From: Candidatus Woesearchaeota archaeon
GTDB lineage: Archaea > Nanobdellota > Nanobdellia > Woesearchaeales > UBA12501
Direction: 5' to 3'
Assembly: GCA_030651375.1 (NCBI GenBank)
Contig: JAUSFM010000009.1
Coordinates: 65,345 to 129,344, forward strand
DNA: 64,000 nucleotides
Position 1 is the first letter of the stretch. Each line of letters opens with the position of its first letter. Shown piece by piece: positions 6,424 to 62,359 of the stretch. The notes below the pieces were generated by a model. The model saw only the letters and a program-made list of their open reading frames with translations. It was not told where the DNA came from and searched no databases. A program made the translations under genes and the position numbers.

Positions 6424-6428
6424 TATGC

Positions 6429-7064: not shown

Positions 7065-7066
7065 AG

Positions 7067-8779
7067 TTATCTCTCCAATACTTTCTCAATCTGCGCTAGC
7101 GTCCTCGTATTCAGCACGTGCCGTTTTTCTAGCCATCCTCTGCGTGCAGTGATGACGCCGTATTTCACATACTCAAGCTGCTCTTTCGCGTGCGCGTCAG
7201 AACTGACCACAAACGAACAGCCAATTTCGCGTGCTGCATGAACGTGCACATCATTCAAATCCATTCGTGCGGGCTGTCCGTTGATTTCCAGAAATACGCC
7301 GTTATCTTTCGCCGTCTGAAACACTTTGTCAGCGTCAAATTCAACACTATTTCGTTGATTAATCAGCCGTCCGGTCGGATGGCCAAATACATTGACTGGA
7401 TACTTTTCCATTGCAGTACAAATCCGTTTCGTCATCTCTGAAGAAGGCATTCGAAACGCCGAGTGAATGGACATCAGCACGACGTCCAGTTTCTTGCACG
7501 CTGTCTTTGACAACGCAAGCTCGCCGTTTTTTGTTATGTCTATTTCCGCGCCCTTGAAAATGCGGATTCCAATTTTTTTCTCTGCTTTGTCAATTTCCGC
7601 GGCCTGTTTCGTCAGCCGTTTTTCATTTAGCGGGTTGACAATCCCCATGCCGCCGACGTGGTCAGTAATCGTGACAAATTTCCAGCCAAGCTGCTGGGCT
7701 TTTTTTGCCATCTCCTCAATGCTGTGTGCACCATCGCTCCAGTTGGTCTGTGTTTGAAAATCGCCACTGATGTCAGGCAACTCAACCAGTTTTGGAATCT
7801 TGTGCTTCAGCGCCAGTTCAATTTCGCCGCGGTTCTCGCGCATTTCCGGTGGCATCCATTGCATGCCGAGTTTTTTATAAATCTCCTCTTCTGTTTTGCC
7901 GGCAACACGTTTCTTGCCTTTCACGGTGAAAAGGCCGTACTCGCTTAAGGTCAGCCCTTTTTTGAGCGCCAGTTTTCGCAGGGCAACTGAATGTTCTTTG
8001 CTTCCTGTAAAGTATTGCAGTGCCGAGCCGTACTGGTTTTTGTTGACCACGCGTGCGTCCACTTGCAGTCCATTCGATAAACGGATACTGCTTTTGCTTT
8101 CGCCGTGCGCCAGCACTTTTGCCACGTCGTTCATTGACACAAAGACATCCATTATTTTTTTATTGTTTTGCCCAACGATAAGAACATCAACATCGCCCAC
8201 AGTTTCCTTGCCGCGTAGGTATGAGCCGGCAGGCATCGCCTTCTCCACGCCTTGCATTTTTTTCAGATACGAAATAATATCTTCCACCATCAGCGATGCT
8301 TCGCCCAACAAGAACCGGTGAGGTGCCCATGTTTGCAGGCGTCCGATGCTTTCCAGAATCTGCTGCTGTTTTTTTTCGCCCATTCCTTCCAATTTGCTTA
8401 TTTTTCCCTGCTGTGCTGCCTTTTTGAGGTCGGGGAGGGTTTTTATTTTTAGTTTTTGGTACAACAACTTGATTGTTTTCGGGCCAATACCTTCGAGATG
8501 GAAGAGTTCTTCTGCAACCGGCATTTCTTTTTTGAGCTTTTCAAAATAAAAGCTTTTTCCGGTGGTGAGATACTCCTCTATTTTTTGCGCAATATGTTCG
8601 CCAACGCTGGGAACGTCTTTCAGTTTCCTTTCTTTTGCAACATCAGCAATATCTTCTGGGTAACTTTCTACACTCTGCGCGGCTTTTCGATATGCTTGCG
8701 GCTTCCATTGCACGTTTTGAATATCGAGAAGATCGGCAATTTGGTACAGAATCTTGGCAACCTCGCTGTTCTTGCGCAT
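7067..8779 (-). CDS. polX: Family X DNA polymerase with C-terminal PHP domain
   Basis: Pol beta-like N-terminus with HhH (EGIGPKTIKLL) and nucleotidyltransferase motif GSYLRGKETVGDVDVLIV. PHP phosphoesterase His/Asp motifs at the C-terminus. Start set at the MRKNSEVAKI Met; the track ORF extends to 8851. Confidence 0.85.
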   Translation of the reverse strand: MRKNSEVAKILYQIADLLDIQNVQWKPQAYRKAAQSVESYPEDIADVAKERKLKDVPSVGEHIAQKIEEYLTTGKSFYFEKLKKEMPVAEELFHLEGIGPKTIKLLYQKLKIKTLPDLKKAAQQGKISKLEGMGEKKQQQILESIGRLQTWAPHRFLLGEASLMVEDIISYLKKMQGVEKAMPAGSYLRGKETVGDVDVLIVGQNNKKIMDVFVSMNDVAKVLAHGESKSSIRLSNGLQVDARVVNKNQYGSALQYFTGSKEHSVALRKLALKKGLTLSEYGLFTVKGKKRVAGKTEEEIYKKLGMQWMPPEMRENRGEIELALKHKIPKLVELPDISGDFQTQTNWSDGAHSIEEMAKKAQQLGWKFVTITDHVGGMGIVNPLNEKRLTKQAAEIDKAEKKIGIRIFKGAEIDITKNGELALSKTACKKLDVVLMSIHSAFRMPSSEMTKRICTAMEKYPVNVFGHPTGRLINQRNSVEFDADKVFQTAKDNGVFLEINGQPARMDLNDVHVHAAREIGCSFVVSSDAHAKEQLEYVKYGVITARRGWLEKRHVLNTRTLAQIEKVLER

Positions 8780-12617: not shown

Positions 12618-13028
12618 TCAGGATTCTCTTCGTTCGATATCACTAACTTTGTCAAACCCTCCATCAAAAGAATAAATTATCGGCACATTTAGTTCACGTG
12701 CAGCGACGATAAGTGAGCAGTCAGTAAGTGTTAATGTTTTGTATTGTGCCATCAATCTTCCGATTTCGTAGTGCATCACTTTATCAACGTACATGACCTG
12801 AATCCGCTCAACATCAGTTAAGGAAACGTAGGCTTTGAGAAGATCTTCAAAGCGTACCTTCTTCATAAGAAAATTAATTACTTCGACAATGACATAATTC
12901 GTGACAATCATCTTTCCTATTTTCTTATCGAGCAACTGATTCATGATATCGATGCTCTTTTGTCGATGCTGATCTCCTTTGTACCAAAGACCGATGAATA
13001 TGTTTGAATCAACAATTACCGTGTTCAT
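12618..13028 (-). CDS. vapC: PIN-domain ribonuclease toxin (VapC-like)
   Basis: 136-aa PIN fold with N-terminal VDSNIF acidic motif. AT-rich relative to surroundings. Translationally coupled to the upstream small ORF. Confidence 0.65.
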   Translation of the reverse strand: MNTVIVDSNIFIGLWYKGDQHRQKSIDIMNQLLDKKIGKMIVTNYVIVEVINFLMKKVRFEDLLKAYVSLTDVERIQVMYVDKVMHYEIGRLMAQYKTLTLTDCSLIVAARELNVPIIYSFDGGFDKVSDIERRES

Positions 13029-13324
13029 AGTGTTGTGTCTATCTCCTCAAGCCAGTTTTTTCCTAAGTCAATCGGTTTGATGCTCTTCAGTAATTGGGTA
13101 ATCCTTTCCCGTGTATTGTCTTGTTTTTTTCCAAGTCGGCTTGCCAGCTCTTCTTGGTGTTCTGCCGCAATTTCAATGCTTTTTTCGATAAGTGTTTTTT
13201 GCGCAACGGAAATACCACGGTGCTTGAGATGAATCTGAAGCTCATCAAGAAGCAGAACGCTTTCCCTTGCTATCCTGCGTGTTGTGTCTGGTTCCATAGT
13301 GACCACTTGACTACTTGTAGTCAA
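13025..13324 (-). CDS. Putative antitoxin partner of VapC
   Basis: 99-aa charged ORF overlapping the PIN gene start by 4 nt. Typical toxin-antitoxin arrangement. Confidence 0.4.
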   Translation of the reverse strand: MTTSSQVVTMEPDTTRRIARESVLLLDELQIHLKHRGISVAQKTLIEKSIEIAAEHQEELASRLGKKQDNTRERITQLLKSIKPIDLGKNWLEEIDTTL

Positions 13325-19451: not shown

Positions 19452-19694
19452 TTAGTGCTTTTGGCTGCGTTGTGCTCCGCCGGTTTTGTAGGGCGTGTGC
19501 TCTGCTTTTACCTTTTGGGACGTACTCTCTTCAGGAACGATGTCGTAAATAGTGCGTTCATCGTAGCCGCAGTCCTTGCAGACCATGCACATGATGTCCT
19601 GATATTCAGCGACGGTAATTTTTTTTGAATTGCATTTGGGACAGGTATGGATGATACTTTTGAGAAGGTCTTCGCGGTTTTTGGAGGATTCCAA
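19452..19694 (-). CDS. Small Zn-ribbon protein
   Basis: 80 aa with CPKC...CKDC paired CxxC motifs. Confidence 0.45.
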   Translation of the reverse strand: MESSKNREDLLKSIIHTCPKCNSKKITVAEYQDIMCMVCKDCGYDERTIYDIVPEESTSQKVKAEHTPYKTGGAQRSQKH

Positions 19695-19705
19695 TTTCTA
19701 CCACC

Positions 19706-19807
19706 TAATACTTAATCTCAACCAACCTTTTTTGCAAGCAAAAAAGCTTGACCAAAATGGGGGCATCCTCGCTTCGCTCGGAGCCCCGCGCGTTAATACT
19801 TAATCTC
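19706..19807. repeat. 14-bp direct repeat TAATACTTAATCTC x2 flanking two hairpin-forming segments
   Basis: Copies at 19706..19719 and 19794..19807. Between them lie palindrome CTTTTTTGCAAGCAAAAAAG and GC-rich hairpin GGGGC...GCCCC. Confidence 0.5.
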
Positions 19808-20047
19808 CACATCCCCTTCTTTTATCTTGCACTGGCAGCACAAGCGGTGCTTTTCATCAATCCCCATTTGCGCCTCTGCTTCGGTGCGTTCCGATAGGTG
19901 TTCCATGCCGCTGATTATTTCAACGTAGCACGTGCCGCACAAGCCGTTTTCGCAGCCGAACGGTATTCCCAACTCTTTGCAGGCATCCTTGATGGGCTCG
20001 CCTTCTTTGACGTCGCGCGATTCACCGCTGGAAATGATGGCTGGCAT
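19793..20047 (-). CDS. 2Fe-2S ferredoxin
   Basis: 84 aa. Cluster-ligand pattern GCENGLCGTCYV ... CCQC typical of the Fer2 family. Confidence 0.7.
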   Translation of the reverse strand: MPAIISSGESRDVKEGEPIKDACKELGIPFGCENGLCGTCYVEIISGMEHLSERTEAEAQMGIDEKHRLCCQCKIKEGDVEIKY

Positions 20048-20177
20048 GAAACGAAAAACCGTGCTGGTGGTTTATATAGGTTGCGGAAATTGATTATTTT
20101 ACTTCAACTATTTCCCTGTTTAGTTCACCCAATCTTTGATAGAAATCCATTTATAGGGGTATCACTTTTTGTTTTTT

Positions 20178-21449
20178 ATGATTAAAAAATCTATTATCTC
20201 AACCATCTTAATACTGCACTTTATACTTTTTAGTTATCCTGTTTTAGGATTAGAGTGTCAATATACTTCAAATCTTGAATATTCAACGGAAGAAGAAGGT
20301 TGGTACTTAAATAATGAGTTATTAGATGGTTCTCCTACTCAGGAAATAATAGGGTCGAATGATAACTTTGAATCTCACAAAGTATACAACCCCTTCGAAT
20401 TTCCCATAACAGTTGAAATTAGTTATGCTACTTTTTCGACATGGTACGGGGGGAGTAATGGTGGAATTACTGGCGTTGTACCTCCTAAACAGTATGTTAC
20501 TCTAATAAGTCATCATACAGCTGATGGGCAGATTCGAGATTTAAAGTTCAAAATTATTGAACCATCCGGAATTATTAACAAACTTGAATTAGTTAAAAAA
20601 AATAAACTTGTCTGTAAAGAATGTGGTGGAAAAGTGTGCATGGATGATGGCTTAACCTGTGAAATAAATTCCGAATGTGGCAGCGGAAAGTGTATAGAAA
20701 AAATATGCTCTCCTAACAATTACTGCTATAATAATAACTGCGAATGCTCCTTTTTTGAAGTTCAATCAAAAGATAACACCAAATGTGAGAATAATAATAT
20801 CTTTTTCGGATTAACATTTATGGCGATGTTACTTATTATCGGCGCACTCATCTTCATCAAAATAATGAGGGAAAAAAGAAAAACAACACAAGCAAAAAAA
20901 GAAGCAGATGTAAAAGTTGAAAAAGAAAAACAGATAACTGCGGAGAAAGAAAGAGAAAAATACGATAAAGAACTTAGTGTTTTAAAAGAACGCCAAGATG
21001 CAATATTAAGAAAAGAAGAGGAATTGGAGGAATTAAAGAGACTTTCTAGTCTAACAAAACAAGAGAAGGAAAATATCCAAAAATTATCAGAAGAAATAAC
21101 TAAAGAAACACTTGAAATGGAGAAAAATGTAAAAAAAAGATTTGCGGTTTCTATGGAACCATATCCAAGTAAATATGCAAGCCATAGGCGTGTTTTTAAA
21201 AATCCCTATCTGGGTGGCTACGAATGTTTTTATGAAGAAAGACTTGACCCCAAAAAATATTCTTTGTCAAAGCTGGTTCATAGGTGGGTTTGGAAAAAAG
21301 CAAATGGGAGGGAACCAAAACAAGGTTATCATATCCATCACATTGATGGAGATAAATACCATAATGATGCAAAAAACCTTGAAGAAATTAAAGGAGACGA
21401 ACATTATGGACTGCATAGAAATGAAAGACAAATTCCCCCTCAATCTTGA
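20178..21449 (+). CDS. Signal/TM-anchored Cys-rich, coiled-coil protein with C-terminal HNH endonuclease domain
   Basis: N-terminal hydrophobic helix, Cys-rich module (CKECGGKVC...CGSGKC...NNCEC), TM helix and K/E-rich coiled coil. C-terminal HNH motif HIHHIDGDKYHNDAKNLEEIKGDEHYGLH. Strongly AT-rich. The track start 20169 is TTG; the ATG at 20178 is preferred. Confidence 0.6.
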   Translation: MIKKSIISTILILHFILFSYPVLGLECQYTSNLEYSTEEEGWYLNNELLDGSPTQEIIGSNDNFESHKVYNPFEFPITVEISYATFSTWYGGSNGGITGVVPPKQYVTLISHHTADGQIRDLKFKIIEPSGIINKLELVKKNKLVCKECGGKVCMDDGLTCEINSECGSGKCIEKICSPNNYCYNNNCECSFFEVQSKDNTKCENNNIFFGLTFMAMLLIIGALIFIKIMREKRKTTQAKKEADVKVEKEKQITAEKEREKYDKELSVLKERQDAILRKEEELEELKRLSSLTKQEKENIQKLSEEITKETLEMEKNVKKRFAVSMEPYPSKYASHRRVFKNPYLGGYECFYEERLDPKKYSLSKLVHRWVWKKANGREPKQGYHIHHIDGDKYHNDAKNLEEIKGDEHYGLHRNERQIPPQS

Positions 21450-21596
21450 TCTCATGCCTCTTTTTTCCATTTTTTTTATCGAGTAATCTCCCCGTTCATC
21501 CCACCCACTGGACATCCCCATTCTGCCTTAAAACCCCCGATCACAGGCCATAAGCCCCAAACTCCGTAGCACTGGACACTGGACAGATGCGCGTGA

Positions 21597-21613
21597 GGTT
21601 TATATAGTACCAC
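21597..21613 (+). promoter_or_regulatory. BRE/TATA-like promoter (gaggtttatatagtacc) for the Bro-N gene
   Basis: TATA-like octamer about 25 bp upstream of the ATG at 21629. Confidence 0.4.
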
Positions 21614-21628
21614 TCCCTCAACAAAGTA

Positions 21629-22474
21629 ATGGATCAAAAAACTGCTTTGGTCGTGTTTGAAGACAAGAAAATACGAAGAATCTGGCATAATGACGAATGG
21701 TATTTCTCTGTTGTTGATATAATCGGTGTACTCATTGATACTCCCGATGCTCGGAACTACTGGAAAGTTCTCAAACATCGTTTATTAAAGGAAGGAAGTG
21801 AAGTGGTTACAAAATGTAACCAGTTGAAATTACCCGCCCCGGATGGTAAACTAAGGGAAACCGACTGTGCGAACACCAAAAACATGTTCAGAATCATCCA
21901 AACAATACCTTCTCCCCGTGCAGAAACGTTTAAGATGTGGCTCTCTCAAGTCGGCTACGAGCGCGTCCAAGAAATCGAAAATCCGGAATTAGGCCAAGAC
22001 CGCATTAAAAAATATTATGAGCTGAAAGGCTATCCCCAAGACTGGATTGACAAGCGCCTTCGGGGAATTGCTATTCGCCAAGAACTCACCGATGAATGGA
22101 AAAACAGAGGCGTTGGTGAACAGCGTGAGTACGCCATCCTCACCAATGAGATTTCACAGGCAACATTTGGCGTTCCCATCAAAACGCACAAGGAAATCAA
22201 AGGCCTTGACCCGAAATTCAAGAACCAAAACCTGCGCGACCACATGTCTGACCTCGAACTTATTTTTTCAATGCTGGGCGAACGGCTGACCACTGAAGCA
22301 GCGCGCAAGAAAGACGTTCACGGTTTTACCGAGAATCTTGAAACAGCACAAGAAGGCGGCGCGGTTGCCGGCCGCGCGCGTACCGACGCTGAAAAGACTT
22401 TAGGCATTGCTGTTGTTTCTCCAGAAAATGCACTTGATATTGTTCACCAAAAGAAGCGCATAGAAAAAAAGTGA
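21629..22474 (+). CDS. Bro-N domain protein (DinD/antirepressor-like)
   Basis: N-terminus LVVFEDKKIRRIWHNDEWYFSVVDIIGVL fits the Bro-N/KilA-N pattern. C-terminal charged domain. Confidence 0.6.
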   Translation: MDQKTALVVFEDKKIRRIWHNDEWYFSVVDIIGVLIDTPDARNYWKVLKHRLLKEGSEVVTKCNQLKLPAPDGKLRETDCANTKNMFRIIQTIPSPRAETFKMWLSQVGYERVQEIENPELGQDRIKKYYELKGYPQDWIDKRLRGIAIRQELTDEWKNRGVGEQREYAILTNEISQATFGVPIKTHKEIKGLDPKFKNQNLRDHMSDLELIFSMLGERLTTEAARKKDVHGFTENLETAQEGGAVAGRARTDAEKTLGIAVVSPENALDIVHQKKRIEKK

Positions 22475-22499
22475 TTACCCAATTGCTCGTCGCACATCG

Positions 22500-22787
22500 C
22501 TATTTTCTCACATATGTTGCGAGTGTTCTTTCAACTTGATTTCCAGGATGTCTTAAATCGAGAGGGTGACCAATCTGGCGCAGGCGTCCAACCAGTTGGC
22601 GTTTGGTATAATAACCCTCGATCGTGCCACCTTTTTGATCCCTGAACCAAATTTCGAAACCGCGCGGTTCATGATTAAGAAATGGTGGAACATATGCGAC
22701 TGAAAGTTTTGTTCTGCCCTCTTCCGTTCGTAAATACCAGCTTGTATCTGTATTTTGTCTCCAGTACGCTTGTTCCATAAGGTTCAC
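22500..22787 (-). CDS. Hypothetical protein
   Basis: 95-aa ORF, 4-nt overlap with the aEF-1beta stop. Confidence 0.3.
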   Translation of the reverse strand: MNLMEQAYWRQNTDTSWYLRTEEGRTKLSVAYVPPFLNHEPRGFEIWFRDQKGGTIEGYYTKRQLVGRLRQIGHPLDLRHPGNQVERTLATYVRK

Positions 22788-52300: not shown

Positions 52301-53390
52301 TTATCGATGAGCCCGGCGCGAGAACATCAAGAAGGATATTTCGATTGGTGAATGCTGAAATTGCGTCTGCTTTTGTCGTCGAGCCAACCGCCGTGACATT
52401 GGAAAGGCATGCCGGAAGCGCAATGCCACCCGTGTTGGCGCTGTTGCCTGACGCCGCGAGCATCATAATGCCCTGTCCATACGCCGTGTTCGCCGCGTCA
52501 GTGAACGCAAGAGTTTGTCCATTTGCATCACAGCTTGCGGCGTCGCTGAAGATGCCCGTGCCCAAGCTCATGGTGATGACATCAATGCTGTAATTGTTTT
52601 TGTTTGCAATACAAAAATCAATCCCTTTGAGAATATTCGAGAGATCCGTGCTGCTGTCCTTGCCAAATACTTTGACCGCGACAATGCCTGCGTTTTTTGC
52701 CACACCCACCAGATTATTTCCTCCTGCTGTGGCCGGAGCGTTTGCCGCCACAATGCCGGCAACATGGGTGCCATGGCCGTTTTCATCGGTTGCGTTGCCA
52801 AACAGTTCGGTCTGATTATTTGGGCAGCACGCCGAGCCGTTGTTAGTACAATAACAGTATTGCGCAACAATATTGTTCTTCAGGTCAGGGTGAGTCGGGT
52901 CAATGCCCGTGTCAAGTACGCATACACCTCTCCCTGTCCCGGTGATGTTTGCCCCTCCCACCACTAATTGGTGCACCGTGGTTGCTTTGATAAGCGGTAC
53001 GCTTTGCTCAAGCAGCAGGTGCATTTTCGTGTCAGGAATGATTGCCGCAACGTTAGGATTGTTCTGCAATTCAGCCAGCGTGTCCTTTGGCACGGTCGCA
53101 GCAATCATATTAAGCATTTCAAATGTTTCAATATTTTTTACGCCCGGGGCATCGAGCGAGTCGCTGATGACGCTGTCTTGTTTTTCACGAACACCCTCTT
53201 GTACTGTTGCGAGTGACATTCCTGCTGTGGAAGCAGTCTCTTTGAGTACAATAATCACATCATTGGTTTGCTGGGGGACGAGGTTCACCGCAGTGTCTTC
53301 AGCGGTGCTTCCAGCGGTAAAAAGAGCCAGACTAATAAGTACAGTAAAAAGAACTACCATCCTCTTTTTTTGAATGTCCATCACCTTCAT
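49320..53390 (-). CDS. Giant secreted subtilisin-like serine protease (S8) with Ser/Thr/Gly-rich stalk and C-terminal TM anchor
   Basis: Catalytic triad motifs DTGIDPTHPDL, HGTHVAG and GTSMATPHVAG. More than 40 NxS/T sequons in the ~700-aa extension, poly-Gly (GGGAAGGGGGGGGG), and a TM helix FGLGSILTLLTLGALGLG near the C-terminus. Confidence 0.85.
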   Translation of the reverse strand: MKVMDIQKKRMVVLFTVLISLALFTAGSTAEDTAVNLVPQQTNDVIIVLKETASTAGMSLATVQEGVREKQDSVISDSLDAPGVKNIETFEMLNMIAATVPKDTLAELQNNPNVAAIIPDTKMHLLLEQSVPLIKATTVHQLVVGGANITGTGRGVCVLDTGIDPTHPDLKNNIVAQYCYCTNNGSACCPNNQTELFGNATDENGHGTHVAGIVAANAPATAGGNNLVGVAKNAGIVAVKVFGKDSSTDLSNILKGIDFCIANKNNYSIDVITMSLGTGIFSDAASCDANGQTLAFTDAANTAYGQGIMMLAASGNSANTGGIALPACLSNVTAVGSTTKADAISAFTNRNILLDVLAPGSSINSTAQQNCPAGGSGQVCNNNRYTTLSGTSMATPHVAGLVALANQFSQQFQNRILRVDELRVLLRNTGKKIADAGTGLTFLRIDALELVQTIQEPIKYSQFNNSATTNFAAQTLENLEMLAGAQIGNGDGLVAYPGAVNFVKMNLNESISIKPGNIIINISREPRLNATAVVTMKNPPVLNGFIFDDGKKCASCMVMSSSGDNTTFNVTNFDAYGNFTTSASAVLTIFDDNDAQRGSKNSTVDDDITFFANYTNTTGAPIVGNANCTITIENVSHAMVYNATSSYYEYTTFFTTEKSIDWNGSCSASDTTPAAAQDTITIYPFVAACKQYTKPNRNILMNASLEYGGNGTCMTLSADNITLDCDGFSFVSKNTNVGTGMAMTTNNARVKSCTLTNFSTGILFDGAANAQVNDSATNGALGMKGFGGRNQLINTTTTSKTIEANTTTSVELDWYLSVNTTNNNSQPLLTNMTITLQNGSTITTKNVSAMNFLLVEGVYGAVNDILTPHTVTVEAGTYTKQNKIINLSQTMSTALTMVLSQLPSVATFDGNTTNFNAAPNLANGSDLFIEKKERGSVNFTGGKDARGRDFDNAIRLSDRLVSVNTTMLGSEYNNTARVTIKNVTCPTKIVAAEAVYTAADKVRAAGFVCSENSSTACINVVCTDNAVSFTANHFSSFTVEPNAGVVLSSDSPKQPNQTVTMQLNYRNSTSNEVITDAVCFLTVNNDTSIAAFNAASNRYERVQSFTAEGLYRYNATCDGVLFTKLSEEGILNISLSAPNTSSTGNTGTGSTGGGAAGGGGGGGGGPTQSQQQSRPASTLPASAPASISSIGTTSETSSDGEAAAQESESSFESATESETAGGDGVTGAATAEQTETVSNDLLTGRIAGVGKALGFVKEDGEFSMFGLGSILTLLTLGALGLGSFSYRKITHLDSDSAARLKTSIGSLGIASDALSFVRQKSKTLVEKLKQKLPHKKKYLFEEGEAAQGEQDKKFEF

Positions 53391-53426
53391 TTACTGCCTC
53401 GTTCGGCAGGGAATATGTATCCTTTT

Positions 53427-53462
53427 TCTTTTATAAATCTTGTGAAGATAGGTTTATATATG
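53427..53462. promoter_or_regulatory. Divergent promoter region with TATA-like boxes (cttttataaatc; ggtttatatatgg)
   Basis: The second box lies about 22 bp upstream of the + strand gene at 53483. Confidence 0.35.
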
Positions 53463-53482
53463 GCCACCTGTCCCGCTCCACT

Positions 53483-53980
53483 ATGCGACCTGAACTTGAA
53501 ACAAAAACCCTCGTTAACCGGTTAAAAGATACTGACATTGGCAAGGCAGGAGTATCCCGCCCTGAATGTCAACGCATGATAGCAGATGTTGTGCGTGAAT
53601 ACGTTGAAACAGCGTATGCAGTGACTAGTACAGTCATTGCACGGGCGCTTGAGGAATTACGCAACAATGCTGATTACCGCGCTGAAGGAAGAACCCCATT
53701 CTGGACACGCTCCGCCACTGACTGGGACCTCTCTCGTTTTACCAGTGCACAACGAAATCCCTATCTCACCGTAGTGCCGCATAAAAAAATTGGCGATGCT
53801 GCACGCTATTTTATTCAGAAAAAAAATCCAGGTATCTCAGTTGATATCAGCTGGTCAAAAGACCATGCCAGCGCTTTTGCGCAACAGCTCATTTATTATC
53901 GGGATGATACTGCGTTAGAACTATACATCAACAAACATTTCAGGCCAAAACGCATAATCTACCAATTTCGCGAGAGTTAG
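53483..53980 (+). CDS. Hypothetical protein
   Basis: 165-aa ORF, no motif. Confidence 0.35.
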   Translation: MRPELETKTLVNRLKDTDIGKAGVSRPECQRMIADVVREYVETAYAVTSTVIARALEELRNNADYRAEGRTPFWTRSATDWDLSRFTSAQRNPYLTVVPHKKIGDAARYFIQKKNPGISVDISWSKDHASAFAQQLIYYRDDTALELYINKHFRPKRIIYQFRES

Positions 53981-53990
53981 TTAGCTGTCG

Positions 53991-55025
53991 TTACATTCTC
54001 GGCTGCTGCTGGCTCATGCAGTGAATCGTGCCAAAGCCGAACACGACGTGGTAGCAGTTGATGCCGACTACTTTTCGCTGCGGGAATTGTTCCTGAATAA
54101 TCCTCAGCGCTTTCTCATCATTCTTGTGCCCAAAAATAGGCACGAGCACAACCGTATTGCCGATGTAGAAATTCGCATAGCTTGCCGGCACCCTTCCTTT
54201 GTCATCGCCCACCACACCGGGCATGGGCAGTTTGATGACCGTAAGTTTTTTCCCATCCTGATCCGTTTCTTTGCATAGAATGTCATAATTTTCTTTCAGC
54301 ATCGGATAATTTTCATCGTTGGCATCATCTTCATACGCGCATAGCACTGTTGTGGGGTTTACAAACCGCGCAAGGTCATCAACGTGGCCATCGGTGTCAT
54401 CACCCACAATGCCTTCATTGAGCCAGATAATTTTTTTGACGCCCAAAAAATCCTTCAGATACTGCTCAATCTGCTGTTTTGAAAGCTGTGGATTCCTATT
54501 TTTGTTAAGCAGGCACTGTGCCGAGGTCAGCAGCGTTCCCTTACCGTTGACATCGATTGAGCCGCCTTCGAGCACAATGCCGGGCGCGAACCGCTCAATC
54601 TTCATTGTTTCGTTAATCCATTCGGGAATGTGAGAATCTTTGAGCAGTTCTTCGTACTTGTTGCCCCACGCGTTGAAAATCCAGTGCGTCATGGCGAGCT
54701 TTTTTTCTTTTTTATTCACCACAAAGATTGGGCCGTAGTCACGAAACCAGACATCGGCATACTCATGGACATGGAGCGTTATTTTTGAGAAATTGCATTT
54801 TTTCTTTTCAAGCGCCGCCATCACTTTTTTCTTCATCGCTTCATTTTTGACGAGTAAATTCACCTGTTCACTGGAATGAACTGCTGCAATAATCTCTGCC
54901 ATGGCCTTTTCTGCCTCCGGCATATTCGGAAACGTAAGTGGGTCATGCGGCCACGAGAGCCAGATAGCATCGTGCGGTTCCCATTCTGCGGGCATCTGAT
55001 AACCGAGCTGAGAAGGCGTTTTCAT
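53991..55025 (-). CDS. aguA: Agmatine deiminase
   Basis: MKTPSQLGYQMPAEWEPHDAIWLSWPHD N-terminus and C-terminal catalytic Cys region (GTIHCMSQQQP) of the agmatine/porphyranase-type deiminase family. Confidence 0.85.
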   Translation of the reverse strand: MKTPSQLGYQMPAEWEPHDAIWLSWPHDPLTFPNMPEAEKAMAEIIAAVHSSEQVNLLVKNEAMKKKVMAALEKKKCNFSKITLHVHEYADVWFRDYGPIFVVNKKEKKLAMTHWIFNAWGNKYEELLKDSHIPEWINETMKIERFAPGIVLEGGSIDVNGKGTLLTSAQCLLNKNRNPQLSKQQIEQYLKDFLGVKKIIWLNEGIVGDDTDGHVDDLARFVNPTTVLCAYEDDANDENYPMLKENYDILCKETDQDGKKLTVIKLPMPGVVGDDKGRVPASYANFYIGNTVVLVPIFGHKNDEKALRIIQEQFPQRKVVGINCYHVVFGFGTIHCMSQQQPRM

Positions 55026-55029
55026 TGTC

Positions 55030-55875
55030 TCACTTTTTACACAAACGTCCATACGTTTCCGGCCGGCGGTTGCGCATGAATCCCCATGCGTCGCGGATGT
55101 CCTTGTTTTTGCTGGTATCAACATCAACAATCAGAATTTCTTCCTTGTCGCCGGCGCGCTGAATCACATTGCCAAATGCGTCGCATACAAATGAGCCGCC
55201 CCAGAAATGCAGTTCATTTTCTTCGCCAACACGGTTGACCGCAGCGACAATGACACTGTTTGCAATGGCGTGGCTGCGCTGGATGGTTTCCCACGCATCG
55301 TGCCACTCACCCTCATGTGCTTCATGGTTTTTGATAGTGCCGATTGCCGTGGGGTAGAAAATAATTTCAGCGCCGTTGAGCGCGCATACCCGTGCCGCTT
55401 CAGGAAACCACTGGTCGTAACATATCAGGACAGAAAAGGTGGCATACTTTGTTTTGTAAACAATATACTCGTCGCTACTTTCCTTGAAATAGTCCTTTTC
55501 ATAAAACAGCGGGTCGTGGGGGATGTGGTGCTTGCGGTAGGTGTCGAGCTGTTTTCCGTCGGCGTCAAACACCAGCGCAGAATTGTACTCTGTTTTTCCT
55601 TTTTTTTCATAGAATGGCACAACAAGCACCACTTTTAATTCATCTGCAAGCGCAGAAAACCGTTCACTGAACTGGTTTGGAATGGATTCAGCCAGCGCCG
55701 AAAAATCTTTTTTTTGTTCGCGCGGAAAATAGCGCGTCGCGAACAGTTCCTGCAGGCAGATGATTTTGGCACCTTTCTTCGCTGCAGCCCTAATTTTTTC
55801 AATAGTTTTCTGTATGTTTTCGGGCTTGCTTTCACCGGCAGCACTTTGAATGAGGCCAATGGTTACGTTGGTCAT
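55030..55875 (-). CDS. aguB: N-carbamoylputrescine amidase (carbon-nitrogen hydrolase family)
   Basis: Nitrilase-superfamily E-K-C triad context (ICLQELF; ...LICYDQWFPE). Adjacent to aguA. Confidence 0.85.
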   Translation of the reverse strand: MTNVTIGLIQSAAGESKPENIQKTIEKIRAAAKKGAKIICLQELFATRYFPREQKKDFSALAESIPNQFSERFSALADELKVVLVVPFYEKKGKTEYNSALVFDADGKQLDTYRKHHIPHDPLFYEKDYFKESSDEYIVYKTKYATFSVLICYDQWFPEAARVCALNGAEIIFYPTAIGTIKNHEAHEGEWHDAWETIQRSHAIANSVIVAAVNRVGEENELHFWGGSFVCDAFGNVIQRAGDKEEILIVDVDTSKNKDIRDAWGFMRNRRPETYGRLCKK

Positions 55876-55927
55876 GGTTCATCTAATAAAAAAAGAAGAA
55901 GTATTTAAAGGTAGCTGCTCGTCACTG

Positions 55928-56599
55928 CTACTCAACCATCCCTTCACAGGTAAATTTGAGTTCAGTGTACAAACCAACCGTGTTTCCAGCGAGCTTGTTG
56001 ACCAGTTCTTTTTGCCAGTACGTCTTTCCCTTAAGGAGTTTTTCCTTGACCGTGCATGTTGCCTTCTGGCCAGGCTTGAGCACTTCAGTGCCACATTCTT
56101 TTTGTGGTTCAGTTACCCGGTTGCTGTTCAGTTGGATTCTCATAGCATCTTTTTCAGTGACCTCTTCAACGCCGATGCGGGTGAGCTGATATTCTTTTTT
56201 GCCCTTGTTTTCAATCGTAAACGTTACCATTGACTCTCCGTCGGGGAATAGTTTTCCGCAGACCACATTTGAGAACCATGATGTTTTCTCCTCTTTCTTT
56301 TGAACGTCAGCAGCGCTGCCGATAACTGTTTTTTCAGAAACAGTTACGCTGTTTGGTTGGGAGTATTCAGGAGCGAGTTGTGGTTTTTCTTGCTGTTCTT
56401 GTTTGTTTTCACCTGCTATTACTTCTGGCTGTTCAGCTGCTTGCGCTGCCGGTTCTTGAGCATCTGCCATTGCAGGCTCTTGATCTTCTGGGCTTTCCAG
56501 TTGTGCAGTCACTTCAGGAGCGGTTTGTTGTTGGGTGCGGGCGCAGCCGCTCAAGGCAATAACTCCAACAAGAATCAGGACAAAGAGCATTTGTTTCAT
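55928..56599 (-). CDS. Secreted lipoprotein with acidic Q/E/A/P-rich linker (paralog A)
   Basis: Lipobox LSGC; low-complexity acidic linker. C-terminal domain related to the adjacent paralog (EEKTSWF...). Confidence 0.5.
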   Translation of the reverse strand: MKQMLFVLILVGVIALSGCARTQQQTAPEVTAQLESPEDQEPAMADAQEPAAQAAEQPEVIAGENKQEQQEKPQLAPEYSQPNSVTVSEKTVIGSAADVQKKEEKTSWFSNVVCGKLFPDGESMVTFTIENKGKKEYQLTRIGVEEVTEKDAMRIQLNSNRVTEPQKECGTEVLKPGQKATCTVKEKLLKGKTYWQKELVNKLAGNTVGLYTELKFTCEGMVE

Positions 56600-56612
56600 A
56601 GGTACACCTTTT

Positions 56613-57377
56613 TTATGTTCGGCATTTAAAATCAGTTTGCGTTGAGACAAATCTCGAACGTGCTTCAACGCTGTTAATCATTTCTTGCTTTTCCTTGATA
56701 AATTTGTGTGTTTCAGGATAGCGTAGGCTTGCTGGGCAGCGGTTACATTCAAGCGTTTGGCCAGCCTTGACAATCATCGTGCCACAGCAGGCGTTAATCT
56801 GCTCATTCGTGAGCCGGTTGCCATTTATTGCTAATTTTATGGGCACATTGGTTGCTTCGTCGGCTCCAATTCGGGAGTATGCATTGGCCCACGTGAGATT
56901 GTATTCACGATTGTCATTATTGGTGAAACGGAAGGAAAGCGCATCTTCATGTTTCGTGCCGGTGCCAAACGTTCCCTGTTTTTCACCAGTGTACCGTTCA
57001 CATTGCAAGCCGGCAAACCAGCTTTTTTCCTCGGTTTTTCGGGTGTCGCGCGTTTCGCCGAGTACTGTTTCCTGTTTTGTTACTTCAACATTTGTTTCAA
57101 GCTGGGCAAGTGCAGATGCTGGTTTTGGGTCAAGCACAGAATTGCCCGTGAGGCCGGTGCCTGCTGCAGAATCAGCATTTTCTGGTGCAGTTTCAGATTC
57201 TGGCACTGCGGCTGGTGCTGCTTCTGCAGTTTCTTCAGGTGCAGTTGCATCTGGTTGTGATGGCTCTTGCTGTTCTGGCTTTATTTCCTGTTTTGAACAT
57301 CCTGCAAGACTCAACATCAATATACTTATAGCAAAAAGGACAGAGAATATGTGCATTGTTCTCATAGCGATTGCCAC
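56613..57377 (-). CDS. Secreted lipoprotein with acidic linker (paralog B)
   Basis: Lipobox LAGCS, acidic E/A/P linker, C-terminal domain with EEKSWFAGLQCE similar to paralog A. Confidence 0.5.
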   Translation of the reverse strand: MAIAMRTMHIFSVLFAISILMLSLAGCSKQEIKPEQQEPSQPDATAPEETAEAAPAAVPESETAPENADSAAGTGLTGNSVLDPKPASALAQLETNVEVTKQETVLGETRDTRKTEEKSWFAGLQCERYTGEKQGTFGTGTKHEDALSFRFTNNDNREYNLTWANAYSRIGADEATNVPIKLAINGNRLTNEQINACCGTMIVKAGQTLECNRCPASLRYPETHKFIKEKQEMINSVEARSRFVSTQTDFKCRT

Positions 57378-57486
57378 CTCACATGGGTATACATCAATTG
57401 ATGCGAAATAGTATATAAATATTGTGCATTTTGAAACAGCTTATTTGAGGGGAATACTCTCTGATTTTATCTGATTTCTCTCGCTC

Positions 57487-57990
57487 TCATCTGAAGAAAT
57501 ACGACCAAATAACGAGAATAGCCAGTGCAATCGTGCTAATCTTCCAGAGAATGTCACTCTTTATCTCGACAAACTCATCTTCTGCCGGTACTGTTGCCGT
57601 CGATGTGCTGTTTTTTGCTTCTTTTTGTTTCTTTTCTTCCGGTTCGTTGCGTTCTTGTATCTCTACTATTTTTGAAATCCGCGCTGGCTTTGGTGCAGGC
57701 TTTACTGCCGCTGCTTTTATTGTTTTTTTTGCCGGCGCTGCGCGCGTTTTTGCTTTTTGCTCTTTTTCTTTTTTCTGGCTTTGCTGCTTTTGTTCAGTTT
57801 TTTGCTTTTGTTTTTTGGGCGCCGGCGCAGGTTCGTGTACTGATGCTCTTGATTCGCCTGATTCTGATTCTCCCGCTACCTTTCTGACGCTTTCTGCAAT
57901 AGAATACATTGGGTCACTGGTGCCGGTGCCAGCGCTGGATGCGTATTCGCTTTGGTAGATACCCGTCTTATCAGCCATATTCATAAGCAT
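57487..57990 (-). CDS. Tail-anchored K/A/Q-rich protein
   Basis: 167 aa with a highly basic low-complexity middle and a single C-terminal TM helix. Confidence 0.4.
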   Translation of the reverse strand: MLMNMADKTGIYQSEYASSAGTGTSDPMYSIAESVRKVAGESESGESRASVHEPAPAPKKQKQKTEQKQQSQKKEKEQKAKTRAAPAKKTIKAAAVKPAPKPARISKIVEIQERNEPEEKKQKEAKNSTSTATVPAEDEFVEIKSDILWKISTIALAILVIWSYFFR

Positions 57991-58112
57991 TGGCCTGTTT
58001 TTTTATAAAGTTTGTTGTCCTCGAATATCCGTATCTATCTCCCCCTCTATTATTCCAAACAGAATAAACTGGGCAATAACCTTTTTAAAAACCTGCTTCA
58101 GTGAATCGAATC

Positions 58113-59327
58113 ATGGCACGAAAATACCTTTTCACCAGCGAAAGTGTCAGCGAAGGACACCCGGACAAACTCTGCGACCAGATTTCAGACGCGATTCTCG
58201 ACGCCATCCTCGCCAAGGATCCCAACGGCCGCGTCGCGGTTGAGTGCCTCGTCAAGACCGGCTTTGTCGTTGTCGCCGGCGAAGTGACCACGACCGCGTA
58301 TGTTGATATTCAAAGCATTGTGCGCAGCGTCATCTGCGAAGCAGGCTACGACCGCCATGATTTGGGATTTGAAGGCCAGACGTGCGGTGTTCTTGTCGCG
58401 CTTTCAGAACAATCACCTGACATCGCGCAGGGCGTTGATGAGCGTTCTGCAACGGGAAAAGAAACTGCCGAACAAGGCGCCGGCGACCAAGGATTAATGT
58501 TTGGCTATGCCACTAATGAAACCCCTGAATTCATGCCGCTGCCCATTAGCACCGCGCACAAGCTTCTCTTAAAACTGCGCGACCTTCGCAAAACACATGT
58601 GCTTCCGTACCTTCGGCCTGACGCAAAAAGCCAAGTCACGGTTGAGTATGACGGTGGAAAACCCGTGCGTATTCACACCGTTGTTTTGTCCGCTCACCAT
58701 TCGCCTGATGTTACGCACGCGCAGATAAAAAAAGACCTCATCGAACACGTCATCAAGCCGGTGTGCGGAAACTACCTCGACGATTCAACCATCTATCACG
58801 TTAATCCAACCGGAAAATTTGTGGTCGGCGGGCCGGTTGCCGACGCAGGCCTTACCGGCAGAAAAATAATTGTTGACACCTATGGCGGCCACGGTAGCCA
58901 CGGCGGCGGCGCATTTTCCGGAAAGGACCCCAGTAAAGTTGACCGGTCCGGGGCATACGCCGCGCGCTACATTGCAAAAAACATTGTCGCCGCGGGACTC
59001 GCCGACAAATGCGAAGTCCAGCTTGCGTACGCCATCGGCGTTGCCGCTCCTGTTTCCATTTTGGTCAACTGCTTTGGCACCAACAGGGTTTCGGAAGAGA
59101 AACTTTCTGAACTGGTGAGAACCCACTTTCCCATCAAGCCCGCTGACATTATTTCTCATTTGAAACTCCGCAGGCCCATTTTCAGAAAAACAGCAAGCTA
59201 CGGCCACTTTGGCAGGGACGACCCTGATTTCACGTGGGAAAAACTGGACAAGGTTGACGCGCTGAAACAGGACGCGGGGCCGCTGCATGCTCCTGAACAT
59301 ACAGGGAAAGATGTGGCGCTGGATTGA
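58113..59327 (+). CDS. metK: S-adenosylmethionine synthetase, bacterial/eukaryal MetK type
   Basis: [43 protein letters not shown] and [23 protein letters not shown] are hallmark MetK motifs. Confidence 0.9.
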
Positions 59328-59337
59328 ATTGGTTGAT

Positions 59338-60345
59338 ATGGCTGCTCTTCGTAATTCTAACAAGAATCTTAACTCAAACAAAGCTACGGGAAGGAAAATA
59401 GTCTGGTTCTTGGGGGCAGGAGCTTCTCGAGGTGCTGGTGCCGCACTGCGGGTCGGCGGGTCGGGAGGTACAATTAAAATTCCAATTCAAGCCGACTTTT
59501 GGGACGTTGTTCTAAGGTATGGATCTAAAAAGGATGCTGACAAAATACAATCTTTTTTATTTAGATATTTTGCAGGTTATGATAGGACACCTGCGCGTAG
59601 TAATCGAAAAGAACGAAGAGAAGTATTGAAAAATATTGATGTCGAAGAAGTTTTTACTTTTTTGAGTGAGAGAATCAAAACCAAGCAAATTCCTGACTCT
59701 TTAAAAACTTATTTTACGGAAATTCAGTCAAAACTAATACGCACGGTGACAAAAACCCTTCGTAAATTCGAACCAAATGCCCAAACTAAGAAAACCTATG
59801 CCACCTTCTCTAAAAATCTTCTGCGAACAAGAGACGCTGTTGTATCTTTTAATTACGATACTATCTTCGAATATTCTTTGCCAAAAAACAAACCCTTCTT
59901 TTATCAGGATGTTTCGAAAAAAACTAAATTTTATGCTGTTTTCAAGCCGCATGGTTCTATAAACTGGAAGATGGGGGAAAACAAAAAACTTGAAGTTGAC
60001 GATTATGTTGACGAACCCGAACTAATCCCTCCAACACATCTAAAATTTATCGGAGAACAAATTGACCCAATAAAACTGCTTTGGAAAAAAATGGAAATTC
60101 AAATGCAAGCAGCCAAAACTTTTGTTTTTATAGGTTATTCATTTCCTGATGCTGATTTCTACTTTTCTTCTGTTATGCGATCTGTTTTAACAAAAACTAA
60201 AAGAAATGTTAAAATAATCCTTGTTGACCCCGATGCTCAGCGATTGTCAGAAAAGTTTGGTAAACGTTTCTCAATAACTCAAAACAGGATTCTAAAATAT
60301 TTTGATTTATCACAACTTCTTCAAATTAAGCGTAAGACATTATAG
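59338..60345 (+). CDS. SIR2_2-family (defence-type SIR2-like) protein
   Basis: N-terminal IVWFLGAGASRGAG, then FNYDT and HGSINW motifs of the SIR2_2 fold. AT-rich gene immediately after metK. Confidence 0.65.
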   Translation: MAALRNSNKNLNSNKATGRKIVWFLGAGASRGAGAALRVGGSGGTIKIPIQADFWDVVLRYGSKKDADKIQSFLFRYFAGYDRTPARSNRKERREVLKNIDVEEVFTFLSERIKTKQIPDSLKTYFTEIQSKLIRTVTKTLRKFEPNAQTKKTYATFSKNLLRTRDAVVSFNYDTIFEYSLPKNKPFFYQDVSKKTKFYAVFKPHGSINWKMGENKKLEVDDYVDEPELIPPTHLKFIGEQIDPIKLLWKKMEIQMQAAKTFVFIGYSFPDADFYFSSVMRSVLTKTKRNVKIILVDPDAQRLSEKFGKRFSITQNRILKYFDLSQLLQIKRKTL

Positions 60346-60510
60346 TTCGGTCATTTCAGATAAGTCCGCTTTTGAATTTATTTTTCTGCCTTTTAATCCC
60401 GCCAAAACTATCTTTACCAATACGTTCCCTTCCTCTAACTGTATTCGTTTAGGTCTCATTTGATCTATCTCACCGAAAGCTTTATATATACATATACATT
60501 AATACTCTCT

Positions 60511-60723
60511 ATGTCGAAACTTATCAGCGTCTCGGATGATGTGTACACAACCCTTAAAGAGATGAAGGGTGAGGAAAGCTATTCTGTTGCCATAAGAAAA
60601 CTCTTTACCCCTAAGTCGAATAAAGAGAAGATACTCAGTTTTTACGGGAAAGGTGGGATTGACAAAGAAATGATAAAAGAGGTTCAAAAATCATGGAAAC
60701 AGTGGTCAGAAAAATATGTTTAG
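60511..60723 (+). CDS. Putative VapB-like antitoxin
   Basis: Small ORF (MSKLISVSDDVYTTLKEMKG...) overlapping the PIN gene start. Confidence 0.4.
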   Translation: MSKLISVSDDVYTTLKEMKGEESYSVAIRKLFTPKSNKEKILSFYGKGGIDKEMIKEVQKSWKQWSEKYV

Positions 60724-61076
60724 ATTCTGATGTTGTTATCTCTTTATTGAACAAAGATGAACCTACCTATGTTTCTCTTCAAAAACTTAATGCAACCTTT
60801 TGCATCACCGCAATAACCTCATTTGAAATATGGTGTGGAAAGAACAAACCAGAGACCGTCTTTGAAATCCTCGAGTCCTTTCACACGCTCGACTTTGATA
60901 CTCATGCAGGCCGCCTTGCGGGCGACATTTTTCGAAAACTCAAAGAACAAGGACGGCTTATCGAAATGCGGGATATTTTCATTGGCGCAATATGCATCAA
61001 AAATAATATGGAACTGTTCACCCTCAACAAAAAACATTTTGAGCGGCTAAAAGAATTTGGCTTAATTCTAGTATAA
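60693..61076 (+). CDS. vapC: PIN-domain toxin (VapC-like)
   Basis: 127 aa. N-terminal LDSDVVI acidic motif and PIN fold pattern. Confidence 0.65.
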   Translation: METVVRKICLDSDVVISLLNKDEPTYVSLQKLNATFCITAITSFEIWCGKNKPETVFEILESFHTLDFDTHAGRLAGDIFRKLKEQGRLIEMRDIFIGAICIKNNMELFTLNKKHFERLKEFGLILV

Positions 61077-61081
61077 GGCTA

Positions 61082-62359
61082 TTATCTCATTCCCATCACT
61101 CGCTCTGCTTGAGCAATCGCATAGTTTCTAAGATACCGTTCTGCTTGTTTCGATGCATTCGCAGGCAAGTTTCTTCCCCGCATGATATGCTCGTCAAGAG
61201 CTGCATAATCATGGCTGCGTACATAGAATTCAACTGCTTTTCTCACGGCACGGAGCCGGAGATTGTCAGGCAATACGTCTGCGCGCGCTATCCATAAAAA
61301 ATCAGATGCGTGGGGCTTCTGCGGCCACGTTTGTGAAAGCAGGTAGCTGATGCCGTATGCTTTCATTTCTGGGGAGAGATCATCGTGGTCCAAAATAGTA
61401 AGCCGTATATTGCTATATGAATCCCGATCTTTTTGAAACCGAATAAAATCACTCAATGCTTTTTTTCGCAGCGTTTCTGGAAGCGCAGTGTCTGCAATAA
61501 ACGCTACGACCTGATCTCTATACCTCAAATGTTCATTCTGTCTAATCCATGTTGATGCAACACTGGTGGCTTTTTCACGCGCTTTTTTTCGTACTTCTTT
61601 TGGAAGGAATCTTTCATTTGCCATACATTTGAGTGCAAGATACTCATTCTCTCGGGTATGTTCTTCTATTGCTTTTTCTGCAGCGGGGCCAAGAGCGGCT
61701 CGTATCTGTATGCGATGGGGAGCAGGGATTCTTTTGTTTGTTCTACTCTCTTCATACAAATGTTCATACGAGCCCTGTTCAACACAGTTGGTTATATACG
61801 CTGATAGCGCAGCATCCATCCCTGCTTCTGCTGCATGCCGTACTTCATCAGGAACTTTACGGTTGTGGGAAAGTGCCAGGACTTCAATATAATTTCCTTT
61901 TTCCACATCGAACTCAACAAGATTTTTTCCTGCAGCAACACGAGTTTCATCAGGAGCATATTTGTTTTGGACGAGATTGAGAAGACGATACTGTCCTCCG
62001 TCTCCTCCGCGCGCCACATACAATTCGATCAGCTTTTCCCCGGCGGCACGGCGAATGTCATCGGGAAGTGTTGTATCTAGTGCCAGAACTTCTAATTCAC
62101 CGGTATCTTTTTTTTGCAGTACTTTTCGCGCCGCAGCGGGAAGGTGTTTTTCTGCATCTTCTGGTATTCCTGCTGGAAGAGAATCTCTATTCTCCTCCAC
62201 AGTAAGAATGGAAAGAGCAGTGTACATTCCGCGTTGGACATAGGTTGATACTGCCAGTTTTCCTGCGGCAAGACGCTTTGCTTCATCCGGATGCCAGCGC
62301 ATGACGGCCAGCAGCGATTCCAGCGTATCGCGCGGTTCAAGATCAGGAGTTGGTCCCAT
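61082..62359 (-). CDS. Repeat-containing hypothetical protein (HEAT/PBS-lyase-like repeats)
   Basis: Recurrent ~30-aa units containing AAG(K/E)xL(V/I)E(F/L)YV..G.Y. Confidence 0.4.
   Translation of the reverse strand: MGPTPDLEPRDTLESLLAVMRWHPDEAKRLAAGKLAVSTYVQRGMYTALSILTVEENRDSLPAGIPEDAEKHLPAAARKVLQKKDTGELEVLALDTTLPDDIRRAAGEKLIELYVARGGDGGQYRLLNLVQNKYAPDETRVAAGKNLVEFDVEKGNYIEVLALSHNRKVPDEVRHAAEAGMDAALSAYITNCVEQGSYEHLYEESRTNKRIPAPHRIQIRAALGPAAEKAIEEHTRENEYLALKCMANERFLPKEVRKKAREKATSVASTWIRQNEHLRYRDQVVAFIADTALPETLRKKALSDFIRFQKDRDSYSNIRLTILDHDDLSPEMKAYGISYLLSQTWPQKPHASDFLWIARADVLPDNLRLRAVRKAVEFYVRSHDYAALDEHIMRGRNLPANASKQAERYLRNYAIAQAERVMGMR

Follow-up and report, generated by a model that had tools for sequence, protein, structure and literature searches.

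In a 64 kb sequence of a Candidatus Woesearchaeota archaeon, a DPANN archaeon (the whole stretch of DNA that was analysed, referred to here as the window), the core gene metK is followed by a short AT-rich segment, 59338-61076, whose three plus-strand open reading frames (ORFs) were identified by ORF listing and profile searches as a protein of the SIR2_2 superfamily, a VapB antitoxin and a PIN-domain VapC toxin, in that order (Table 1). The balance of the evidence favours a strain-variable accessory islet, lodged in the gap between metK and a convergent gene for a 425-amino acid protein and holding two independent modules. Within this islet the SIR2 gene is swapped, low-GC cargo: at least three different genes or sequences, SIR2 among them, occupy the place next to a resident VapBC pair. 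The SIR2 product is probably a stand-alone, auto-inhibited NADase that serves as an abortive-infection effector, a reading drawn from sequence and predicted structure. The original prediction had placed a SIR2_2 protein and a VapB/PIN-toxin pair here and suggested that they form a compact defence locus. The gene calls and their coordinates hold, with the Pfam matches above their cut-offs, and one half of the suggestion, a discrete accessory islet with an immune-type SIR2, also stands; the other half, SIR2 and VapBC as a single system, is not supported.

The variable slot between metK and vapB

The turn to an AT-rich composition directly after metK, part of that prediction, is borne out by GC contents of 0.36-0.38 in the three genes against 0.54 in metK (GC and third-codon-position GC (GC3) respectively: SIR2 0.358 and 0.283; vapB 0.376 and 0.451; vapC 0.380 and 0.383; metK 0.540 and 0.582). 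In 1-kb steps across the window the mean GC is 0.469 with a standard deviation of 0.034, and the islet falls to 0.334, about 4 standard deviations below the mean, a level reached in only one other region, at 19.6-21.5 kb. The genes for diphthamide synthase, NMD3 and a protein with an EF-1 guanine nucleotide exchange (EF1_GNE) domain elsewhere in the window fit an archaeon, six proteins encoded near the locus match NCBI entries in the series MDO8642516-27 exactly, all assigned to Candidatus Woesearchaeota, and 14.7 kb around the locus, SIR2 included, are identical in a second, independent assembly (Logan, SRR13727527).

Comparison with relatives, designated by locus labels (L085, L089, L090, L091, L093 and L001), identified both the limits of the islet and its alternative contents. 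Three independent assemblies, L089 (from a groundwater metagenome), L090 and L091 (GCA_900218215.1), share 96% nucleotide identity with the window over 52805-59330 and 90% from 61094 on; between these two blocks they hold the stop codon of metK, a 22-nucleotide AT-rich spacer and the stop codon of the convergent 425-amino acid gene. Given that these genomes run from metK directly to the 425-amino acid gene, the 59331-61093 segment is a presence/absence islet. In L085, at about 86% nucleotide identity to the window, the order is metK, a MazG-like gene on the minus strand, vapB, vapC, a gene for a 443-amino acid protein and phosphoenolpyruvate (PEP) mutase; homology to the window is lost at the metK stop codon and regained at about 60470, the start of the conserved stretch AAGCTTTATATATACATATACATTAATAC. 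The MazG-like protein has no match in PADLOC. L093 keeps vapB, vapC and the downstream gene, and there a third, unrelated sequence abuts the same vapB promoter. The site is empty in L089-L091, holds MazG and vapBC in L085 and SIR2 and vapBC in the window and L001, and has a further upstream sequence in L093; variable content between conserved flanks in close relatives is what characterises an accessory hotspot.

Defence and accessory hotspots between conserved core genes are known from E. coli and Pseudomonas pangenomes. The archaeal site resembles them in its fixed core flanks, its alternating content and the lack of an integrase or repeats at its borders, and differs in three respects: the islet is only 1.8 kb long, it lies in a DPANN archaeon, and the VapBC pair stays in place, exchange being limited to the gene beside it. 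As to how the segment came to be inserted, no integrase adjoins the islet borders, and no direct or inverted repeats or target-site duplication bracket it, the only repeats being short and at chance level. There are no tRNA genes in the window, and hence no tRNA-linked integration site.

The solitary SIR2 protein and its family

The SIR2 domain starts at residue 20 of the protein, and the sole significant SIR2-type match in Pfam is SIR2_2 (PF13289; 38.8 bits against a cut-off of 24.5, 1e-9, residues 167-305). Among the PADLOC models, the generic SIR2 and Aga_SIR2 models match at about 1e-12 (Aga_SIR2 at 3e-12, over the SIR2 core only) and the ThsA models weakly, at 4e-4; a search of NCBIfam with the protein gave no match. 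The GAGAS, FNYD and HGS motifs named in the original prediction are present, and in an alignment of 32 family sequences from several phyla, with 58 invariant columns and a mean column identity of 54%, the residues G26-A27-G28 (of GAGAS), N172 and D174 (of FNYD) and H205-G206-S207 are invariant, A29 and S30 being conserved in at least 90%. Also invariant are H234-L235-K236-F237, within the segment PTHLKF, and most of G266-D273 (GYSFPDAD), and the family has invariant motifs of its own, FLFRYF, VEEVFTFLSER and GYSFPDADxYFSS. [quoted passage not shown]

The AlphaFold (AF2) model is of high confidence (predicted local distance difference test score, pLDDT, 89.6; predicted template modelling score, pTM, 0.88), and its top matches in Foldseek are the SIR2 subunits of SIR2-HerA, or Nezha (8uae, 8yhx and 8w9l; E-values of 1e-10 to 1e-8, TM about 0.6). 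Lower down come DSR2 and ThsA, with E-values of 1e-5 to 1e-4, and sirtuin 5, at 5e-4, with SIRT6 likewise below the immune SIR2 proteins, although one CobB entry (6rxm, E-value 3.4e-6) ranks between SIR2-HerA and DSR2. By sequence, the only solved relatives that can be detected are two SIR2-HerA subunits (phmmer, 1e-9). The protein has no cysteine at all and so lacks the Zn-binding Cys4 module of the canonical sirtuin deacylases; with these matches, the prediction of a defence-type SIR2_2 protein rather than a housekeeping sirtuin is upheld. Residues 232-241 (PTHLKFIGEQ) align to helix α15 of SaSir2, residues 316-325. In S. aureus, α15 of Sir2 covers the active site, and its deletion gives NADase activity that is independent of HerA (PMC11514289). 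The aligned catalytic dyad and the match to α15 support a SIR2 NADase that would carry its gate within its own chain.

The family to which this protein belongs is rare. A search of 5.8 billion proteins returned 495 homologues, of which the best 120 are mostly about 330-345 amino acids long and, save for the window's own identical copy, share 41-51% identity with it, all those with a named host being bacterial. When 1.84 billion cluster representatives were searched with a profile, a tight family stood out, with a sharp drop in score to sister groups of 355-375 amino acids and, past these, a wide scatter of small SIR2_2 proteins. Among 185,579 species, each represented by one genome, a member at 40% identity or above occurs in about 21, which span at least eight bacterial lineages (including Parvibaculum, Hyphomicrobium, Burkholderiales, Solimonas, Lysobacter, Acidobacteriota, Bacteroidia/Cyclobacteriaceae, Elusimicrobia and Verrucomicrobiae), and none of which is archaeal; the only archaeal member found is the window's own. 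The GC content of the gene is nearly always below that of its locus, for example 0.35 against 0.49, 0.46 against 0.63 and 0.45 against 0.64. The low GC of the archaeal gene and its bacterial relatives point to acquisition from bacteria, that is, to a transfer from a bacterium to a DPANN archaeon.

No partner accompanies the gene. The 55 ORFs of the window include no HerA, no ThsB or other TIR protein and no Argonaute, and all-against-all clustering of ORFs from the window and 21 bacterial loci found no conserved neighbour within 5 kb, with neither VapBC nor HerA beside any of the 21 bacterial members, so that the protein is stand-alone, as had been predicted. The same clustering recovers a four-gene operon and type I restriction-modification neighbours around distant SIR2_2 relatives, which indicates that it detects partners where they are present. 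In that operon, found at L029, L039, L048, L052, L059, L066, L069, L071, L074, L077, L079 and L080 (at about position 10000 in most), a SIR2 protein with 22-43% identity over the matched part, and about 390-460 amino acids long where full-length, is accompanied by proteins of about 470, about 197 and about 140 amino acids; the 470-amino acid protein has no match in the PDB and the locus none in complete E. coli genomes.

Although SIR2_2 proteins, VapBC pairs and variable islets are familiar kinds of element, the SIR2 protein of the window lacks the partners or sensors that define SIR2-HerA, Thoeris, the defence-associated sirtuins (DSR) and the short prokaryotic Argonaute (pAgo) systems with SIR2 (SPARSA), and so fits none of these named systems. 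It is closest to SIR2-HerA (8yhx, 8uae, 8w9l), with which it shares the SIR2_2 Rossmann core and helical cap, the Asn/His dyad and a PT(H/M)LK segment that aligns to the α15 gate helix; however, the identity is only 12-18%, and no HerA gene lies in the window or beside the 21 bacterial members. By architecture it is not ThsA, DSR or pAgo-associated SIR2, the examples named in the original prediction, the protein being a SIR2 domain of 335 amino acids and nothing else. It shares the SIR2 NADase fold with Thoeris ThsA, DSR1/DSR2 and the pAgo-associated SIR2-APAZ proteins, and has weak PADLOC matches to Aga_SIR2 and ThsA. In contrast to Thoeris, it has neither a SLOG nor a Macro sensor, and no TIR/ThsB is encoded in the window; DSR1 and DSR2 are about 1000 amino acids long with a large C-terminal sensor, and the match to DSR2 in Foldseek is confined to the SIR2 domain of that protein (TM normalised to the target, 0.16-0.19); and whereas SPARSA has both, the protein lacks an APAZ region and the window encodes no Argonaute.

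A single-gene precedent is provided by sole-Sir2, a CRISPR-supervised system that is an NADase in vitro and a close homologue of which protects E. coli against T2 and T4 (bioRxiv 10.1101/2024.12.27.630466). Sole-Sir2 (CRISIS) is about 440 amino acids long; its N-terminal region, the proposed sensor, is not SIR2, and its C-terminal SIR2 domain resembles that of DSR2 (bioRxiv 10.1101/2024.12.27.630466). The window protein is likewise a single-gene SIR2 protein with no partner, and differs in having 335 amino acids, in consisting of the SIR2 domain only and in its nearest relatives, the SIR2-HerA subunits, the comparison with sole-Sir2 being by description only.

It is suggested, from these comparisons, that the protein has NADase activity, auto-inhibition, a trigger and an antiviral role. 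SIR2 would be kept in an inactive state, for which the invariant PTHLKF segment aligned to the α15 gate helix is a plausible means; an infection cue would free its NAD+ glycohydrolase activity; and the released enzyme would deplete NAD+, so that the infected cell stops growing. A more tentative suggestion is that the proteins of about 335 amino acids form an uncharacterised family of single-gene immune NADases, a minimal SIR2 effector with neither partner nor sensor domain, gated by its own PTHLKF segment. On this view horizontal transfer would have carried the gene, as a low-GC single-gene insert, into at least eight bacterial lineages and into a DPANN archaeon, there in a slot anchored by VapBC.

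A number of observations weigh against an immune role for SIR2. The protein has no recognisable sensor domain, and its PADLOC matches are to generic models only, at modest scores. A tblastn search of plasmid and phage collections gave no match, and the family is absent from IMG/VR, where there is one distant relative only, at 26% identity; in the BFVD library of viral folds there is a weak match to a Marseillevirus Sir2 protein only. Of 96 neighbours scanned, three per side of the family genes, some speak for an immune role, being of defence type (Mrr, AbiEi/AbiEii, a cyclic-oligonucleotide-based antiphage signalling system (CBASS) cyclase, a pAgo-associated TIR protein (Aga-TIR), a STAND NTPase and PADLOC PDC candidates) and others are mobile genes, a transposase and a resolvase. 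The remainder are housekeeping genes, including those of Parvibaculum, Burkholderiales and the locus of the closest homologue, and in two Parvibaculum species there is synteny around the SIR2 gene, the exception to the lack of shared neighbours. Given these housekeeping neighbours and this synteny, a non-defence role fits as well. Two further points concern the archaeal copy: no TATA-like promoter is visible upstream of SIR2, so that its expression would depend on read-through from metK, and only one of the 32 aligned proteins is more divergent than this one, which has changes at 14 of 106 highly conserved positions. The spacing between PTHLKF and GYSFP is 34 residues in this copy and 44-63 in the others, a difference unique among the 120 homologues, and the roughly 13 residues that it lacks include the nearly invariant GYL(D/N) motif directly after the gate segment.

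These points raise the possibility that the family is not immune but consists of horizontally mobile, NAD-dependent enzymes that modify proteins or act in metabolism, such as a deacylase, an ADP-ribosyltransferase or a regulator. The neighbours, the Parvibaculum synteny, the unusually strong conservation, the lack of a sensor and the lack of matches in phage and plasmid collections would all be expected of such an enzyme. This is the main alternative, and nevertheless an unlikely one, for several reasons: first, the protein has no Zn-binding module and most canonical sirtuins score worse in Foldseek than the immune NADases do, the CobB entry just above DSR2 excepted. Second, the solved relatives that sequence can detect are SIR2-HerA subunits only. 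Third, the distribution is rare and patchy, with a gene GC consistently under that of the host locus, and some members lie among Mrr, AbiE, CBASS, TIR and STAND genes.

It could also be argued that the SIR2 gene of the archaeon is an inert passenger, a recent bacterial acquisition that is unexpressed or decaying, given its divergence and unique deletion, the absence of a visible archaeal promoter and a base composition that has not shifted towards that of the host. This is improbable. The frame of 335 codons remains open in a sequence whose AT-richness favours stop codons, no catalytic or nucleotide-binding motif has been lost, the predicted structure is of high confidence, and the same sequence stands in the independent assembly SRR13727527. 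The shortened loop, furthermore, gives the PTHLKF region the spacing of SaSir2, to which it aligns without a gap. As for expression, the SIR2 start codon lies 10 nucleotides past the end of metK (59327) and is preceded by GGTTGAT, a motif like a Shine-Dalgarno sequence, an arrangement that would permit expression coupled to metK; SIR2 may be co-transcribed with metK by read-through. A scan for bacterial promoters and terminators, which is not applicable to an archaeon, found nothing above chance.

The VapBC module and its relation to SIR2

The vapB and vapC genes overlap by 31 nucleotides with the antitoxin first, and the acidic residues D11, E45 and D94 can be read in the VapC sequence, which places the pair among the type II VapBC modules. 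The NCBIfam models for VapC match the window protein below their equivalog cut-offs, so that the target RNA is not assignable; neither VapB nor VapC has a match in PADLOC. In the window, L085 and L093 alike, the stretch AAGCTTTATATATACATATACATTAATAC reads the same and stops just short of the vapB ATG, whereas the sequence further upstream differs in all three. Within the conserved promoter region, TTTATATA is presumably the archaeal TATA box of a short-leader transcript. The T-rich spacer between the SIR2 gene and this region belongs to the cargo segment, and may act as a terminator after SIR2.

VapB and VapC of the window are 91% and 88% identical in amino acids to those of L085, with ratios of non-synonymous to synonymous divergence (dN/dS) of 0.07 and 0.06. 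Their dS values, 0.75 and 0.88, are near the 0.69 of metK and, together with the low dN/dS, indicate that purifying selection has acted on vapBC and that its divergence has kept pace with that of the core genome. VapBC is the older, resident module, inherited independently of SIR2. In its VAPB_antitox and PIN domains, gene overlap, gene order, own promoter and purifying selection it is the same as other type II VapBC modules, and it differs in that the pair scores under the NCBIfam equivalog cut-offs and is not a PADLOC defence module. From its sequence, this archaeal-type VapBC is probably a PIN RNase toxin restrained by VapB; the pair could serve to keep the islet stable or to halt growth under stress.

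A last reading, that SIR2, VapB and VapC are one three-gene defence system in which, for example, VapBC senses infection, or regulates or backs up SIR2, would account for three adjacent, low-GC genes on the same strand, all within a segment missing from relatives of 96% identity, but it is very unlikely and not supported: vapBC and its promoter are kept in L085 and L093 with other content in the place of SIR2, the dS of vapBC matches that of metK while SIR2 has a GC3 of 0.28 and bacterial relatives only, none of the 21 bacterial loci has a PIN or VapB neighbour, vapBC has a promoter of its own with 165 T-rich nucleotides between SIR2 and vapB, and toxin-antitoxin pairs are scattered in this genome. 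SIR2 and VapBC are linked by position and not by function.

Among those other pairs, a second PIN (VapC-like) gene lies at 12621-13028 on the minus strand (PF01850, 5e-15), with an ORF of 90 amino acids, 13028-13297, directly upstream; the two are probably another VapBC pair. A HicA/HicB pair is situated just past the end of the window (L001 14871-15334), between the genes for PEP mutase and phosphonopyruvate decarboxylase in a phosphonate cluster. In L085 a HAD-type hydrolase (6357-7199) occupies the HicAB position, which suggests another small variable slot.

Flanking genes, other features of the window and significance

The coordinates of the locus and its flanks are collected in Table 1. 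The 425-amino acid protein of the right flank has only 32% amino acid identity to its positional orthologue in L085 and 55% to that in L093, where the neighbouring genes have 88-95%, and it has no match to a family in Pfam, NCBIfam or PADLOC. Given that its gene is present in genomes that have no islet, it is not a partner of SIR2. On the left flank, metK is of the bacterial and eukaryotic three-domain type (PF00438, PF02772 and PF02773), although the host is a woesearchaeote; this type is distinct from the archaeal MAT family.

Table 1. Features of the metK-SIR2-vapBC locus (window positions unless a relative is named)
Feature	Position	Strand	Basis
metK, S-adenosylmethionine synthetase, core gene, left flank	58101..59327	+	Pfam S-AdoMet_synt N, M and C domains
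Variable cargo slot, metK stop codon to vapB promoter	59328..60469	.	Different content in the window, L085 and L093
Presence/absence islet with SIR2, vapB and vapC, 1,763 bp	59331..61093	.	L089-L091 match to 59330 and resume at 61094
Solitary SIR2_2-superfamily protein, 335 amino acids, putative NAD+ glycohydrolase	59338..60345	+	Pfam SIR2_2, PADLOC models, fold
T-rich spacer 3' of SIR2, part of the cargo segment	60346..60469	+	No homology to L085 or L093; oligo-T runs
vapB promoter region, conserved; TTTATATA at 60481-60488, about 26 nucleotides before the ATG	60470..60510	+	Identity across lineages
vapB antitoxin, 70 amino acids	60511..60723	+	Pfam VAPB_antitox (PF02697), 46.9 bits against a cut-off of 27.9, 5e-12
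vapC PIN-domain toxin, 127 amino acids	60693..61076	+	Pfam PIN, 42.9 bits against 23.6, 9e-11, model positions 1-117 of 120
425-amino acid helical-repeat protein of no known family, fast-evolving, right flank	61082..62359	-	Kept in the empty-site relatives, L085 and L093
MazG-like gene, 244 amino acids, in the SIR2 slot of a sibling lineage	L085 1438-2172	-	Partial MazG nucleotide pyrophosphohydrolase domain, 2e-8

Elsewhere in the window, a second low-GC islet at 19600-22500 has the lowest GC of all, 0.32 over 1 kb. It contains an ORF of 426 amino acids (20169-21449, plus strand) with a C-terminal HNH_3 endonuclease domain and, beside it, a Bro-N protein of 281 amino acids (21629-22474, plus strand) whose full length is covered by a match to PDC-S13, a candidate defence family of PADLOC (E-value 2e-116). 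A Pfam census of 55 window ORFs also found Sigma70_r2 matches in two ORFs and Sigma70_r4 matches in two, with E-values of about 1e-15, which is unexpected on an archaeal contig.

At this locus, a very small archaeal hotspot, an exchangeable cargo gene lies beside a toxin-antitoxin pair that is stable, and the locus documents the transfer of an immune-type gene from a bacterium to a DPANN archaeon. The archaeal copy is a natural loop-deletion variant that can be compared with the rest of its family, and the alignment to the gate helix of SaSir2 makes the proposed gating directly testable. If the family does prove to consist of immune NADases, no smaller SIR2 defence unit would be known, and the question would arise of how a bare SIR2 domain senses infection without HerA, TIR signals, an Argonaute or a fused sensor.

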